Program-made: the position numbers and the translations under genes
Source: Pocillopora damicornis
Lineage: Eukaryota
Direction: 5' to 3'
DNA: 64,000 nucleotides
NCBI RefSeq assembly: GCF_003704095.1
Contig: NW_020846227.1
Coordinates: forward strand, 62,001 to 126,000
The notes under the pieces: generated by a model
Database searches by the model: none
What the model was told of the DNA's origin: nothing
The model's input: the letters and a program-made list of their open reading frames with translations, nothing else
Part shown: piece by piece, positions 50,466-63,956 of the stretch
How the letters are laid out: each line of letters opens with the position of its first letter
Position numbering within the stretch: position 1 is the first letter of the stretch

Positions 50466-51295
50466 GTCAACATGGGAAAATGCATTTGATTACAAAAACA
50501 ACAATGGGCGTAATTTTTAATAAACAAAATTCTCATTTATTGACTTTGTCCTTACTGACAGAACATAAATGAGTGTTCATGCGATCTTCAAAGCGACAGA
50601 GTGCACTGTCTGTTCGACAACAGAATTCCACGCGGCTCTCATCATTAATATTTCTAAGAAATTTATCCGCCCGCAAAGCATTCGTAATCCTTTCCAGCAT
50701 TAACGAGCTTCAAATCAGTCACATTCTTCTGAAGAATAAGAACACAACACAGGTCATCGAGTCCAAAGTGTTAAGTACAATGAATTGAACGGATTTTTTT
50801 GATAATTGTCCCCGATCGATCTGAAAAAAAAAATAAATGATAATAGTGATAATAATGGTGATAATTATGATGATAATGATGATGATAAAAACAGCGTAAT
50901 AAAGTTTACGGTCGTTACTGGCTTTAGTCTCACCTTAGGGGGAGGGTACGAATACACATGGACTTTTAACCGTGCCAGTTTATATTATCAATTCAGTTGA
51001 TAACTGCTAACTGTCTTGTAAAACCCCTCACCGATGCAGCACCACAGTTTCTTCATAAACTCCCCCTTAAATCAAAATTGTTTGCTAAGGGTAAATAGGA
51101 ACCAAAGAAGAATGAAGAAGCTTAATTAAATGTGATTAGGGCGGAGACTGACAAGGATCACAAATGCGAACCTTGTGACAATCCTTGACGAAACTTCAAA
51201 GCGTGTCATATGTTTCGGTAGGCCGCGTGACTTCTTGCGTTACCTATCGTGACTTTTCAAGCGGGCCGTAGTGTTGAAATTACTCTCCGCTCGCC

Positions 51296-53566
51296 ATGGT
51301 CAATGACTTCTTGCTGTTAAGCGTTGTGTTCTCATTTCAAGGCACCCTTTTACTGATTGCTCTTGTCCTAACTTTGTACATCACTTGTTCCTTTTTTGGC
51401 GATGTACGGGTCTCGAATCTGGAGAAGAAAGCCGTGTTTATCACTGGCTGCGATAGTGGATTCGGCTATGAGTTAGCCAAGAAATTAGATGCGGAGAGAT
51501 TACGAGTGTTCGCTGCTTGTCTCACTTCTGAAGGAGAGGCAAAGCTGAAAAATGAATGCTCTCCGGAGCTTATCACACTAAAACTGGACGTTACCAAGCC
51601 AAGGGATATTCAATACGCTTTACAAGCCGTCAAATCACACCTGCCTTCTCAAGGTATTTCATCGATCGAACTGGATTGAATCTTGTTCATTCCTTCAAGG
51701 ATTAGCTAAGTTAACATCGCTGATGAAATTTGGATGAGACTTAACTCATGTATTGTGTGTCTATGTAAGGTGACTGTTTCCATTGTAAATAATTGTTTTC
51801 TTTTAACTGATTCGAGGGTTTTGAAAATCTTTCCATGCTTACTCGTGAAAAACGGAAAAAACACAGACACAAACCAAACAAGCAAAAATCGGTCTTTTGT
51901 TTTTATAAACTGAAATACTACAAGCAACTTTCAGGTGGGGAATGATGTTAAAAACTTTTTAAAGATTTTACTCCTTGTCAGATCACTGGAGCACTTGATC
52001 ATCTGATGACTGTGAACAAGTGGTAAACATTTATCAGTAAATTAGTAAAGGGGTGGGGTAGGTGGGGAGATACAAGTAATCCCTTAAGCGGGCTTTTTGG
52101 TATGTTAGGTGTGTATTGGTGTGATTCCCCACCCCTCTCCCCTTAATTGTCTGGAATGTGAGGTAGATTTTGCTGTCTGGACCTGAGAACAGGTTAGCTT
52201 TACCACAGACTAAGTATAAATTTTATCTGTGAACATTTGTTTGGGATCCAGTGTAAACTAATGTGAGAAGATGGACTAATTTTGTTTTAAAGCTTGGGAA
52301 AGACTTAAAACCATGCTACCCAGCCTCCCCTCCCATATTTACCTCTGGCTAATGTGGAATGGCACATGTTATCTCTTGATTATTGGTGAAATAAGTTCAA
52401 CTAAAAGCGTCATTTTCAAATTCCATTTTTTCTTATTTAAAACATACTTCTGCATTATTCTAGGTTTGTGGGCTATAGTAAACAATGCAGGCATTGGATA
52501 CCCAGGACCCATTGAATGGCAACCTGTGGAGGAAATGAAGAAGACTTTGGAGGTGAACCTGTGGGGAATGGTGAATATTACGAAAGCATTTCTTCCATTA
52601 CTAAAGAGAACCAAGGGGCGTGTTGTTAATGTTGCCAGTTCATCAGGGAGACTCTCTTATCCTTTTGCTGCAGCTTATTGCATCTCCAAGTTTGGAGTGG
52701 AGGCTTTTTCTGATGCACTACGCAATGAAATGAAGCATTTTGGAGTCACTGTTCACATAATTGAGCCAGGGATTTTTAAAACAGCCATAACAGATGCAGA
52801 GAAGAACATCAAATACCTACAAAGATTATGGGAAAACCTTGATGGAGATACCAAAGAATGTTACGGAGGGGAGTTTTATGAACAAGGTATGGGAAAAGTT
52901 TAGCAATCATGTTATTATTATTGAATGCTCAGGGAAAAGCTTGACTGTGATTGGTGAGGCCTTATAGCAATGTAGTAGCATGTTATTGCCTGCTTTGTTG
53001 TTTGCAAGAAAACTGTTTTGTTATTCTGATTGGTCAATTTAGCAGGCTGTATTTTACTGTACTGCCACCTAAACTCGGCTCTAAAACTGAGTGGAAAAGG
53101 CAAGATCCAAAACTTGCAGACCTCAAGCTCAGTAAGAAGTATTTAACCCCTCACCAATCTAAAAAATTATGCAGGACTCAGAATAAATATTAAGTAAAAT
53201 GAAATGAAGTGAAGAATATTAAAATCTTCCATTGTGGAAAAACCTTAATTTTTCAACTATTGGCTCCTTCTTTGGCAGTGAGTTGCTTCTCTTCCAGTAA
53301 TACAACTAATGTGGTTTGATCTTTTTAAATTATCAGCCAAAGCCAAGTTAAGAGACATACGTCATATTTTTTCACTTAACATTTTCAAAGTGGTTGATGC
53401 CATGGATCATGCAGTGACATCCACACATCCTAAACTAAGATATGTTCTTGGGCTGGACCACCAACTCATTTGGAGAACTCTCTCATTTCTACCATCTGAA
53501 ATACAAGATTTCTTCTTTGGACTGATGTTGCCAAAACCAAAGGGAATTGATGGTCGTGGCACTTGA
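51296..53566 (+). CDS. Short-chain dehydrogenase/reductase of the RDH/HSD17B6/BDH1-like group; exons 51296-51653, 52464-52886, 53337-53566
   Basis: TGCDSGFG cofactor motif, GLWAIVNNAG, catalytic YCISK, IEPG, N-terminal hydrophobic anchor. Confidence 0.9.
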
Positions 53567-57800: not shown

Positions 57801-59363
57801 CAATGTATTACCAGGAATTAAAGAACAACTCAGCAATCAGCTTACCAGGTCAGTCTCTGGGTTATCACAATCAGGGCATAAAACAAACTTCTCAATAAAC
57901 CCATCAAGAATGTCCTGCAACTTCTCTGCATCATGGGATCCATTTACAATGTAACGCTCATTCTTCAAGTCTATCTGGGTTTGTGCACCCAATTCACAAC
58001 CAAAGTACTTAGTAGGATCTAAAAGGGGACAATTTTTGTATTACAACTTTATCATGTGGCAAGGAGATAGATATCACAAAATCTATGTGTGGTGGATACT
58101 TGGTAATATGCACTTTAATTTCTTTAAAAAATTAGCTTTCTTTTTGCATGCTGACCAATTAATAGCTAAGGGCTAGTACCTGATACAAGGTAAGTTCCTG
58201 TATGACATTTTAAAAGTGCTCTAAACTGAGAAAGAAATTTTTGTTAAAGGTGAGGTGTACCGCTAAATCCATCCCGAGTCTAATTACTTAACACTAAATA
58301 CACATCATAAACTATGTAACTGGTTTTATTTAAAACACCTAATTTAGGAATCTAAAAGAACTCATTTTGCAGCAAAAAAACTTCCTTACATGAGGCTGGT
58401 CTCTGCAAGGCTTTGGCAATTTCTACCATATTCACAATGACTGTTTTGATTCCATTTCCTTTTCCCTCCACCTGAAAATATTTGTGAAGCTGTAAACTCA
58501 GTATCTTATCAGCTTTAGCTTTTGAACTGCGATGATAATAGCAACAAATGACAACCCTCTGCTTATCCATAAATGAACACAATGTTATACTAGCAGGTTT
58601 TTCCCTAAGAGCAGCCCTCCAAGCTGCAAGGAAAATAAAACAAAACAAGGGTAGGGAAAAAAATTAGTGCCGATTTAACAAACTGTCTGTGGCAGTTATG
58701 ATGCCAGCCATCATTTTTGTATTACCTAGTGTTTAAGGTCTAAAATTAAAAAAAAACCAACACATTTTTTTCTTAAAAAAAAAAAGGACAATTTCTTTGC
58801 CTTTGCTTTCTGTGAAGAACAACTGCTTCTTTCTATGTGGTTGTTTGAGTAATAACCTTTAGGATTTCTCATGAATCCCCGAAAAACAATTGCCAAATGT
58901 TCACATTGCTTATTTCATGCACAAGAGATTCAGTCAACAACACAGTTCATAATTTAATATTTGCAAGAATTTTCCTTCCCCTTCTTTTTATTTCTAGTCA
59001 TCAACATTTCTAGGAGCTTGGAACCCAAGGAAGAGTTCCCTCGGAGAAGTTTTCTGTGGTATTATGGGTAGAAAACTCAACGATTTTTGCTTGAAAAATT
59101 TCATTGTTACTCTGGCTTCTCATATGAATAACGAAATTTAATTTTCTAACATTCTAAATAATTGATTCTTCAATAAATAAATAAAATTTCACGAGAAGTG
59201 CCCATGAAAAGTTATCCTTGCTAGTATTTAAGAAGCTTTAGAAACATGCATGAAAAAGTTCCTTTACCTTTGTTCAATAAAATCTTACCTTAGCTAGGAG
59301 TTTTGGCATCTTATACCGGTAATACATATCGGTGTTTTTTCTGTTGACGTTGACGAGAGCCAT
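54890..59363 (-). CDS. EIF5: Eukaryotic translation initiation factor 5; coding exons 59363-59289, 58471-58390, 58018-57846, 57373-57237, 56614-56497, 56310-56149, 55888-55727, 55485-55318, 55117-54890
   Basis: [39 protein letters not shown], zinc ribbon CPDCDNPET...CKACG, W2 domain [15 protein letters not shown] and [13 protein letters not shown]-terminal DLDIDAI. Confidence 0.96.
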
Positions 59364-61375
59364 GATTGACTACTTTTAATAAGTTTCCTCTTTGACAAAC
59401 GCTTGTAATAATTGCAATTACTGCAATAATTATTTCTGCTGTGTATAATTTTCCCTGTAAAATTCATACAAGTTCTATATCTTTTCCGTACTGCGAAGCA
59501 AGGTAGGCGTTTTAGCCCGCTTTTAGTTTCTGTGTGTAAATGAATCTTGAGTTTGCTCAACCGAGTCCAACCTACAAAAGATAATAATATAGTAAAAAAA
59601 AAAAAAAAGGATGATCAATCATTCATACCATTCAATCAGAAGTGGATACCATCAGGTGTTAGGATTTCTATTTACTTTCAATAGATTCATGAATAGGATC
59701 TCAATGCTGAATCAGTGTTGAAGTGTGAGGCTTGTACTTGTAGCCAAATAAATCCATCATGGATATAATTAGGGTTAAATAATATGGTATATTTTTAAAC
59801 TCATTTTCCACCTCTTGATCATTGTTAACTTACTTGTTTGTTGTATCCTATATTAACAATAGAGACTTACTATTATTGTTATCATTATTCACCATTGCTA
59901 TGTTCATGTAAATGCACCAAAACAAATAGAGAAGGTAAAGACATTTTTTTAAAGTACACAACTCAACTCTAAATGAGATAAAACCCCTTTCAATCATGCC
60001 ACTTGAAGTGCTGGATAGTCGAGGAAATGTAAAAAACCAAGTATGGTATCTGATTTCTTGTCCACATGTGCTTCAATAACAGATGAGAAGTCACATGCAG
60101 AAACTTTATCCCTTCTAGATGCATGGGAACAAAGTTCGTTTTAACATTCACCTATGAATTTAAGACTTGATGCTTACCAAATGTAACAATAATAGTTACT
60201 TTTTTTCAGTTAACCCTTCTCTCCAAGATCCTATTAATAACTCTCTATAATATCTGCTTAACAATTCTTATGATGTTCATTTTATGAATTGGTTTGCATC
60301 AACTAATAATCTGCTAATTGACATTTTTCTTCAATCTTATCACTTCTCTGCATCTGCATGATACTGTATTGAAAATGTAAGGAAAATTCTGTCTTGGTCA
60401 CTGGTGGGAGTTTAAGGGTTAACTAAGACAGGAGTACATTCTTCTGATGGGTCATATTGTTTGGACTTTTCTCATTTGAAAGAATGAAATATTTTTGGGA
60501 AACGAAGCCAAGACATTTTCAATATCCCTGGACACCCATGTTGTCAGTCCTGGACAGTATAAAGAGACTAGACTCACTAATTTGGATTTAAACCCTCTTA
60601 AAAAATTCCACATTGGAAACATTTTACTCTAAAAAAATTCACTTAGAATAATGAAGAAGTTCGTGTGTTCAATTCAAGTCTGTTGAGGCTTTCCTTATTT
60701 TTCACATTTTTTTTTCAGTGTTTAAGTATTGATGGATATTTGAACAAACGTGTGTATGTGCTGATTCAAAACATTTTCATTGTTTTGTTTCTCTATTGTG
60801 CAAGCTGAAATAATCAAAATTTTAAATTTGGATGGTAAGTTGTGCTAATTTCCTCGGCAATTCTTTTTGGAAGTAAATTCTGCTTAAGTATTCAAAAACC
60901 TATGCTTGAAATTTGAGGCAAGAACTGTTATTAACGACTAAAAATAATATTGACAACATATTTCTCGTTCAGAGACCCAGTTATTTGGACAATATAGCGG
61001 TAAGGTTTCGGTTTTGGATCTTCCACGTTTTCTAACAGCCCGAGGGCGACGTGTCCAAGGACAAATTTATTTTTAAACTAAATGTTTCGCGATAAAATAT
61101 GTTTTAAAACTCAGAGATGCATAAAAAAAGGAAAAAACTTGCTCGGTCAAAAACTTCGTAAAATTTTGTCTTACAAGAACTTTACCACACACGAGAGTGG
61201 AAGGCAGAGCGATCGATAACACAAAGACAGCAACTAATGAAGAGGAATTCACACACAAACAGATGACGACATTCGACAGGTAAAATAAAAAAAGTAAATC
61301 ACTACTCCGAGAGATTAATTCGTCAAATTATGAGTCACCGGTTGTTGTCTTACCTTCTGAGCACAAAAAAGTCAT
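59294..61375 (-). promoter_or_regulatory. Spliced uORF overlapping the EIF5 start (61375-61354 joined to 59571-59294; 99 codons + stop) with two in-frame poor-context AUGs
   Basis: uAUG1 TTT-ATG-A at 61375; uAUG2 TGT-ATG-A at 59467; donor GAAG|GTAAGA and acceptor TTTTGTAG|G keep the frame open; the stop lies downstream of the main AUG (ATC-ATG-G, strong context). Confidence 0.75.
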
Positions 61376-61589
61376 AAATTGCCCTAAGATGACGAAATCG
61401 TCGAAATCTCCTTGCACAACAGTGGCGCGCGAAACACGCACTTAACAGCCCAAAATTGAGGGAAATACCTAAATATCAAGACAAAATAATTGTTATAAAT
61501 ATGAAGCTTTCAGGAAATCACGAGAAATTTTTTTTCCGCATCGTAACAGGCTTAAAATTCGAGAAAAATCCAAGTGAATGTCTACTCAC

Positions 61590-61660
61590 ACTTCCTCAGT
61601 AAAGATGGCGAATTAGAGTAAAATTTTTCGATCACGTGACTTCTTATGACGTCAAAAGTA
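61590..61660. promoter_or_regulatory. Putative bidirectional promoter for EIF5 and MEN1
   Basis: YY1-like AAGATGGCG (~61602-61610), E-box ATCACGTGAC (61631-61640), palindromic CRE TGACGTCA (61647-61654); putative EIF5 non-coding exon 1 donor at 61590/61589 (AAGT|GTGAGT). Confidence 0.55.
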
Positions 61661-61956
61661 TTCACCAGTTCCTTTCTGCTTAGGAGTTTCATTTTTTTGG
61701 TTCCATTCATTCAAATCTCTCTTTTTCACTTGTTCTGATATGTTTGTTTATTCTTCGATGGTGGTTTGCGTTTATGATCATGCACTTTTAGGATTGAGTG
61801 ATGTACTTTGTCAAAGGCTAGAATCGAAATTCCAGCTATTATTTAGCTAAAGAAACAGATCTAATAGCGAAACTGCAGTGAATTCTATTTTTTTTAGGTC
61901 CTACGTGAAGGAGTAATCTCGAATGCTGTGATCTGAAGTCTTGATTTTGCGTCGAA

Positions 61957-63956
61957 ATGGAATCGGACGTAGATTGTTTTCCTTTGAAAGACGTCTCATC
62001 CGTGGTCGAGGTTTTCAAGACGGAACTTGGGAAAGACGAGCCGAACCTGGCGAAGTTATCGATCATTTTAGGGTTCTTTGAAACGGCCCTAACTTGCAAA
62101 GGTTCCTCGAGTAGCTGCCCAGGATTAGACAAAGAAACTTTCGACGCGTTGTACGGTAAATTTCAGGCCTTGATTCACAAAGATTTTAACGTTAACAAAG
62201 AACAGAAGCCAGCTTCAAGGGACTTCGTCGTCAATGTCGCAGATCTTGTGTGGAGTTGCCTTTCCAAGTCTTATTTCAAGGATAAACCGCATATTCAGAA
62301 TCTCTACAGCTTTCTAACAGGCAAGTATGATTAGCGTGTATCAGTGTTCATTTACTCGTAGGCTGTGATTACATTAATCCTTTTAGACCAAGGTGGCAGG
62401 TGAGGTTTATCATTCGAAGCCCTGCGTCTTTGCAATTTCGAGATGGTCTTCATTTTTCCACCTTATTAATGATCGATCGAATTTTAATTCGTTTTAATTG
62501 TTTGCATTCATATACTGTAAAATTATGCCTGAGAGCAAATTCCATCTAACCTCGCCAGACCATGCCAATCTGTGTCTGTAAATAAAAAGAGCGCTTCTAA
62601 TTAACTATTTCGTGTTTGAAAGGTATATAGGGAAAAATTGTCACTTCTTGGTTCGCTTTTTTTAAATATCTTTGTTTTTATGTCTTTGTTTTTTTTTTGG
62701 CTTAAGTGAAAGCTATCATGTTCTTACAATTTTAAGTGAGTTACTACACTGTGATGTTTAGTTGTTTTTTTTGTGACGCAGATTTTTGAATCAAAATAGA
62801 TCTCATCATTAATTGTGTTATTCTGTTTGCTAACCAACAAGGAAAGTTATGTTACATTTCTAGTGCATCCTATGGTGAGTAGGAAAGAGACACAAAAATT
62901 ATTGAAACAACAAGAATGATTTTCAAAAATAGTCTCAAGACTGAATCAGTTTGTGTTCAGCAGGCATATTTCTTAAGGAAGGTGTTAATGAGGAAAAGTG
63001 TGAATATTTTCAAAATAATTTCAACTGTCTTATATTCCTTTTGGTAAATGTGTACATCTTAAGCCTTTATTCAACCTTTTGGTTTGCTACTTTTTTTTCT
63101 CTTGGGGTGGGGCGGGTGTGTCATGGTAATGGAATTACTGAGGCATTTCAATTAACCATTTACACTCCACAGGTGACCAGCATCTCATTTCTCCTTACAG
63201 TATCACTTCTAAATCAAACATAAAGGTCATGAGAATAAAGGAAATGATTGCCAATCAACGAAGCTTGTTTGACAAATTCTCCTTACCAGCTCTATTATTA
63301 ATTTTCCCCTCTAGTTGCTACACATTTCCTTGTAAATTGGTCATGAGAATTTGGTGTTTGATCAAGGTAATATCTTGTATTTGATAAGTTTGAGTATTCT
63401 CACTACCTGTTTGCTGGATTATGTATGGATATTATAGGGAGAAGTTACATATTTATCACTTCTGGGAGTTAAGGGTTAATCTTTTTTTTTTATGTCCTTT
63501 ATCTTTAATCACAGTTTGTAACCATACATCGAACCAAAATACAAAAATGGTTGACAGGACGGTAGTAGGGGGAAACTAAATTCCCATGCTAAGACATACC
63601 TTCATTAATGTGTAGGCAATCGGCTTGACTGCTTTGGTGTTGCCTTTGCTGTGGTTGCCATTTGTCAAGCTCTGGGCTTCAATGATGTTCACTTAGCTCT
63701 GTCTGAAGACCATGCTTGGGTGGTGTTTGGTGAAAATGCCGCAGAAACAGCAGAGGTAACATGGCATGGTAAGGGAAATGAGGATAAGAGAGGGCGCCCT
63801 GTGGACTTTGACAAGACCACTGGCCAGAGCTGGCTATATCTGAATGGGTATCCTGTGAAGTGCACGCGGCATATGGAGGTGGCATCTATGGTGTCGTCCA
63901 TTAATCCAGGCATCACAAATACAAGTGACAGTATTGAACTGGCTAGTCTACAACAG
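61957..63956 (+). CDS. MEN1: Menin, 5' part; exons 61957-62320 and 63616-63956, continues beyond the window
   Basis: FPLKDV...[90 protein letters not shown]; the first coding intron uses a GC donor. Confidence 0.95.

Follow-up and report, generated by a model that had tools for sequence, protein, structure and literature searches.

The locus analysed here raises two questions: does a coral eIF5 gene carry the upstream open reading frame (uORF) by which eIF5 limits its own synthesis, and is the intron that divides this uORF a regulatory switch or an inheritance? Upstream AUGs (uAUGs) are near-universal in eIF5, with 867 uAUGs recorded in 337 homologs, and the first of them (uAUG1) has U at position -3 in 98.8% of cases and never G at +4 (PMC3326321). 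In human cells, a reporter with the eIF5 leader is repressed by eIF5 and induced by eIF1, and mRNA decay has been proposed as a possible reinforcement of this feedback (PMC3326321). The animal groups surveyed there are vertebrates, arthropods, nematodes and molluscs, and a term search of main text and supplement of that paper gave no match to cnidarian names. A search of mainly open-access literature, in main text only for PMC7530721, yielded no paper on the eIF5 leader in cnidarians.

In this study, we analysed a stretch of 64,000 nucleotides from Pocillopora damicornis (the window). We propose that the leader of its eIF5 gene very probably contains a copy of the known eIF5 uORF, a likely sensor of start-codon stringency, the feedback itself being ascribed by analogy with the human experiments. 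The intron within this uORF is most likely constitutively spliced and inherited from the cnidarian-bilaterian ancestor, and not a splicing switch.

Results

The eIF5 gene and its overlapping uORF

The minus-strand gene is eIF5: Pfam recognises PF01873 in one coding exon (E 2.9e-20) and W2 in a later one (E 5.3e-11), and the eIF5 exon that was probed has a single match in the genome. Its leader and first coding exons are as follows.

61590..61660, minus strand: leader exon 1, without AUG; GT donor after 61590; 3' end exact, 5' end approximate, since RNA contigs cannot show the transcription start
61469..61589, minus strand: leader intron 1, 121 nt; contains an AUG at 61541 (7-codon ORF), relevant only if the intron is retained
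61354..61468, minus strand: leader exon 2; its final 22 nt are codons 1-7 plus one base of uORF1
61373..61375, minus strand: uAUG1, poor context (-3 U, +4 A), the same context in the related locus L007
59572..61353, minus strand: intron within uORF1 (leader intron 2), 1782 nt, phase 1, beginning 22 nt past the A of uAUG1
GT donor after 61354 and AG acceptor before 59571, minus strand: splice sites of this intron, read from the sequence
59289..59571, minus strand: exon 3, with the remainder of uORF1, uAUG2, the main AUG and eIF5 codons 1-25
59465..59467, minus strand: uAUG2, poor context (-3 U, +4 A), in the frame of uAUG1; Met in 7/7 homologous frames
59361..59363, minus strand: main AUG of eIF5, good context (-3 A, +4 G)
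59294..59296, minus strand: uORF1 stop TAG, which arises from the codons used for eIF5 Leu23-Ala24; the first coding-region intron lies 5 nt downstream
57846..58471 (58471-58390 and 58018-57846), minus strand: the next two eIF5 coding exons, from RNA joints, frame and PF01873

A preliminary description of the window had placed TTT-ATG-A at 61375 in a leader exon (61468-61354), followed one stop-free frame across a 1.8-kb intron to 59571, noted a second poor-context AUG at 59467 and ended the uORF at 59294, past a strong main AUG at 59363 and in a different frame. All of this was recovered. Coordinates and splice donor hold, and spliced uORF1 comprises 99 codons from uAUG1 to its stop, overlapping the eIF5 ORF by 70 nt; with respect to the main AUG, it is in frame +1. 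uAUG1 is preceded by U at -3, -2 and -1 and has A at +4. Reading from uAUG2 gives 57 codons of the same frame. The two uAUGs are the only AUGs in the spliced leader as counted from 61660; further AUG triplets lie upstream of it at about 61690-61710, so that a longer 5' end would bring extra uORFs.

A stringency uORF is expected to be the longest of its leader, to have at least 50 codons and to block reinitiation by its length or overlap, and uORF1 with its 99 codons and 70-nt overlap is of this kind. Indeed, all sequence features of an eIF5 stringency uORF that were checked are present in the window, on the assumption that AUG contexts have the same strength in this animal as in human.

Metagenome contigs were scanned with an animal-type eIF5 N-terminal pattern, which gave at least 118 loci, with the main AUG present in 117 of those listed. 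Two of them, L007 and L037, are identical to each other over the leader and share about 85% nucleotide identity with the window in exons. Menin lies head to head with eIF5 in both, as in the window, and we infer that they come from a coral relative.

In the window, Menin (PF05053) is found at 61600-61960 and 61957-62325 on the plus strand, sharing a short promoter region with eIF5; RNA contigs of the menin side start near 61723-61806. The head-to-head arrangement is kept in L007 together with a promoter block at 61602-61782, in which we take several motifs to be CRE-, E-box- and YY1-like. On the other side, open reading frames outline a multi-exon plus-strand gene at 51278-53566, tail to tail with eIF5, which presumably resembles a short-chain dehydrogenase.

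The position of the uORF intron in different lineages

It is seldom possible to align the leader introns of distant lineages, and the position of this one was compared as its offset from uAUG1, which is +22 nt in the window. The survey covered those 27 genomic loci, among the matches listed, that have 300 nt or more of upstream sequence. At these 27 loci, 22 is the commonest distance from a poor-context AUG to a donor motif (5 matches: L007, L037, L010, L052 and L066), followed by 19 (4 matches). In L010 and L052, the +22 donor and a predicted acceptor would give overlapping uORFs of 90 and 84 codons. The +22 junction of L066 is backed by transcript L006, from a 91%-like organism. L006 groups with the bryozoan Watersipora in the tree (100/100), and L010, L052 and L066 score best against Watersipora among 17 named proteins. 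The human uORF1 intron also follows 7 codons plus 1 base, at +22 from uAUG1, as read by eye from primers 2, 5 and 12 of PMC3326321.

Other offsets occur as well. Transcripts support +19 (L070 compared with L050) and +10 (annelid-like L008 compared with L045), the latter from an AUG with A at -3, and +28 (L003) and +31 (L041) are predicted. All offsets recovered are in phase 1. The uAUG1 exon was not found in 17 of the 27 listed loci, which have short contigs or divergent leaders, and in many arthropod-like leaders among the matches listed, the uORFs stop short of the main ORF. This variation of the offset and these non-overlapping uORFs count against a single inherited element. Nevertheless, the exact recurrence of +22 in three lineages is unlikely to be due to chance under a uniform prior over about 230 possible places, even though the prior may be non-uniform. 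The shared position in the window, in human and in the bryozoan-like loci suggests a single, very old origin, and one inherited intron shifted by whole codons would be the simplest reading of the sequences. Neither the +22 offset nor the shared stop site described below was found in print, and the text of PMC3326321 seen by us does not discuss them.

Beyond the feedback, might the spacing itself be under selection? Exon-junction complexes are deposited 20-24 bases upstream of junctions, and translation of uORFs is reported to peak where a uAUG coincides with the complex (PMC5961209). Sitting on uAUG1, an exon-junction complex could raise or lower the use of the uORF in new mRNA relative to transcripts that have been translated before, and could gate decay in the first round of translation. 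PMC5961209 resembles the present case in that the distance between a uAUG and a leader junction is constant and puts the uAUG at the site of the exon-junction complex. That study, as far as its accessible text goes, compared human and mouse only (Cnot3, Eif4g2), whereas here the offset is common to cnidarian-like, bryozoan-like and vertebrate lineages. An offset of exactly 22 shared by three distant lineages, with 19 in one more, would agree with such selection. The transcript-supported +10 and the predicted +28 and +31 fall outside 20-24 and argue against a strict need; moreover, the short coding stretch restricts indels to whole codons, so that inheritance alone explains a fixed offset. The human intron measures 1056 nt, its boundaries are kept according to the authors, and their reporter retained it at its place (PMC3326321), so that the published work in the parts available does not separate the two readings. 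We therefore consider selection on the spacing conceivable, though doubtful.

Two observations on other loci may be recorded here. In annelid-like L008, L031, L045 and L080, the first in-frame uAUG has A at -3, in contrast to the -3 U reported as almost invariant for uAUG1 of eIF5, and an out-of-frame AUG follows 7 nt downstream. On the L009 contig, the eIF5 N-terminal pattern matches twice at a spacing of about 3.2 kb, which suggests a tandem duplication.

Splicing of the leader

Evidence on junctions comes from contigs of four RNA runs (X1, X5, X6 and X7) belonging to four studies; such contigs lose rare forms, and their depth is no measure of expression level. The preliminary description had proposed RNA confirmation of both leader junctions. 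The joint from 61354 to 59571, which removes the 1782-nt intron, is present in 4/4 runs, placing both uAUGs in mature mRNA whose 5' end is known approximately. The joint from 61590 to 61468 across the 121-nt intron is supported in 2/4 runs: X7 has the joint itself, and in X5 a loose end of 16 nt matches exon 1. It is missing from the joint lists of X1 and X6, and one X1 contig continues unspliced from exon 2 into intron 1, to 61571. Exon-skipping, alternative or frame-closing leader junctions are not listed in the contigs of any of the four runs. Thus, the mature leader named in advance as contrary to the circuit, one that excludes both uAUGs or includes an exon closing the frame, has no junction in these contigs.

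The idea that the split lets alternative leader splicing tune the uORF, the last part of the preliminary description, is not supported. The split is not peculiar to this lineage, since human uORF1 is also interrupted, equally far from uAUG1, and no alternative junction is listed in the contigs of the four runs. To be sure, X5 and X7 splice intron 1, part of which is retained in the X1 contig, and each modelled change would alter uORF content: skipping of exon 2 loses uAUG1, retention of intron 1 adds the 7-codon uORF, and retention of intron 2 closes the uORF1 frame after 15 codons. The X1 contig may also reflect a second leader form. Unspliced contigs may, however, be pre-mRNA or DNA, intron 2 has no inner block conserved between the window and L007, and uAUG2 and the overlap persist in every modelled form. 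Tuning by splicing is accordingly quite improbable to us, and a constitutively spliced, inherited intron remains our preferred reading.

Several features of the introns were noted separately. The third base of the intron-1 AUG (61539-61541, minus strand) differs in X1, the same run whose contig reads through intron 1, and this AUG is not aligned in L007. Contig depth in X1 is flat, so that a dominant retention of intron 1 would not show in it. A short repeat at about 60260-60430 in leader intron 2 attracts very deep contigs with many loose ends and is likely a dispersed repeat. The intron at 58472-59288 (minus strand), which follows the uORF stop, has a contig depth of 19-42 against 0-12 in neighbouring introns in 4/4 runs and a strong-looking cryptic acceptor near 58624. 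Its regulated retention was considered but not adopted, depth being no measure of level and the intron not being conserved in L007. In several introns, box C/D-like motifs noticed on visual inspection were rejected as snoRNAs: the best Rfam match has E 3.5, and no intron-internal block is conserved with L007.

Conservation of the frame and of its stop

In L007, the contexts of both AUGs are retained, as are donor, acceptor and stop of uORF1, and the uORF differs from that of the window by one indel only, of 3 nt. The -3 U and the open frame, whose conservation the preliminary description had proposed to examine, are thus both kept in this presumed coral relative. For the single pair of window and L007, dN/dS is 0.25 over 75 aligned codons upstream of the main AUG, and changes at codon positions 1/2/3 number 5/6/17 (17/28 at third positions, p = 0.003). 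This bias points indirectly to a frame that may be translated, and the uORF would be under purifying selection. A protein search with the exon-3 part of the uORF gave 7 matches among 10 candidates, five of them at 74-76% identity, and all seven share the inner Met and the end.

The stop was surveyed at the 117 listed loci, which form 86 clusters; six were dropped for having less than 150 nt upstream. Among the matches listed, 26/27 clusters with a poor-context +1 uORF through the eIF5 start use the same stop site within one codon, and a +1 stop is found at that site in 5/53 other clusters. Where this stop can be reached by synonymous choice, it is used in 25/27 overlapping loci versus 2/22 other loci among the matches listed; elsewhere in 13 coding regions, such stop-making codons are used in 70/406 cases. 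Fisher p-values for the stop-site contrast are overstated, because the loci are not independent: the overlap label changes only 4 times on a tree of 42 full-length loci. This tree, which places the short N-terminal piece of the window without support, was used only for labelling the loci and for demonstrating that overlapping uORFs cluster on it. The retention of the synonymous stop choice in annelid-like, bryozoan-like, coral-like and other lineages suggests that selection may act to end the uORF at this point.

The constraint on the frame and the stop kept at one site would also be expected if the uORF peptide itself acted, by ribosome stalling or in trans, with repression being constitutive and not dependent on stringency; the dN/dS of 0.25 concerns the non-overlapping part. 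Against such an action, the peptide has no Pfam match, and its relatives are only seven, all of at least 74% identity; the protein clusters of the frame have no informative names. Conservation of the eIF5 uORF peptide between distant groups is scant according to PMC3326321. Human EIF5 is among 17 frameshift-tested uORFs and outside the eight named as sequence-dependent in PMC7530721, the EIF5 uORF used being specified in the supplement of that paper. Finally, the conserved poor contexts would be needless for a constitutive repressor, and we attach little credence to a peptide acting by itself. A likeness exists with plant conserved-peptide uORF group 7 (PMC2075485), in that the eIF5 uORF peptide is conserved within a lineage; that group is from plants, and the intron-position passages seen in that paper concern group 8, not eIF5.

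Long leaders can hold AUGs, and some frame stays open in 234/20000 dinucleotide shuffles of the 227 nt from uAUG1 to the main AUG, yet that of uORF1 is open in 77/20000 of them, and the conserved frame, contexts, intron phase and stop together with the codon-position bias refute an open frame by chance in an AT-rich leader, to which we give next to no probability, unless L007 and the protein matches are misassembled. The two alternative frames of this segment contain 4 and 6 stops.

Discussion

The uORF described here closely resembles uORF1 of human and vertebrate EIF5 as reported in PMC3326321. Both have a poor-context uAUG1 with -3 U and no +4 G, a good main context, a longest uORF of more than 90 codons overlapping the main ORF, a further poor uAUG and an intron at +22. 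They differ in that human EIF5 has three uAUGs and the window two. Overlap with the main ORF is reported for vertebrates only in the parts of PMC3326321 seen; the uORF of the window is known from sequence and RNA contigs.

In the established circuit, eIF5 is tied to eIF1 by a cross-regulation loop (PMC3326321; PMC8892498). The eIF1 gene of the window genome (L121:1326; G000:C1899) likewise has a putative start in poor context, with C at -3 and U at +4 in the genomic frame; the first coding exon after it is short. This genome thus appears to possess both halves of the loop. Of the preliminary claim that the same circuit exists in this lineage, the presence of a probable circuit is supported by its sequence features, the conservation in the relative and the putative poor-context start of eIF1; the role given to the split in splice tuning is not supported.

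The element may work as follows. Under normal stringency, most ribosomes would scan past both weak AUGs, and eIF5 would be made. A rise in eIF5 or a fall in eIF1 would increase initiation in the uORF, whose ribosomes would cross the main AUG out of frame and stop 70 nt beyond it without making eIF5. By analogy with human (PMC3326321), the stop would lie where reinitiation is blocked. Exon junctions downstream of the uORF stop, such as those of exons 58471-58390 and 58018-57846, could add mRNA decay, again as proposed for human.

A more far-reaching proposal is that animal eIF5 genes share a single spliced mini-gene, an orthologous uORF predating the cnidarian-bilaterian split, and that its geometry is functional. 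The intron, kept about 22 nt after uAUG1, would bring the exon-junction complex onto the sensor AUG, and with the stop kept 5 nt ahead of the first coding intron, stringency feedback would be coupled to splicing and first-round decay. As a whole, we regard this proposal as unlikely.

The circuit is established and has already been proposed for most eukaryotes, so that its presence in a coral is expected; what is likely added here is a non-bilaterian animal. Inheritance of the uORF, as opposed to reinvention, is suggested by the common position of intron and stop, and the 22-nt spacing makes it simple to examine whether the sensor AUG is modulated by the exon-junction complex.
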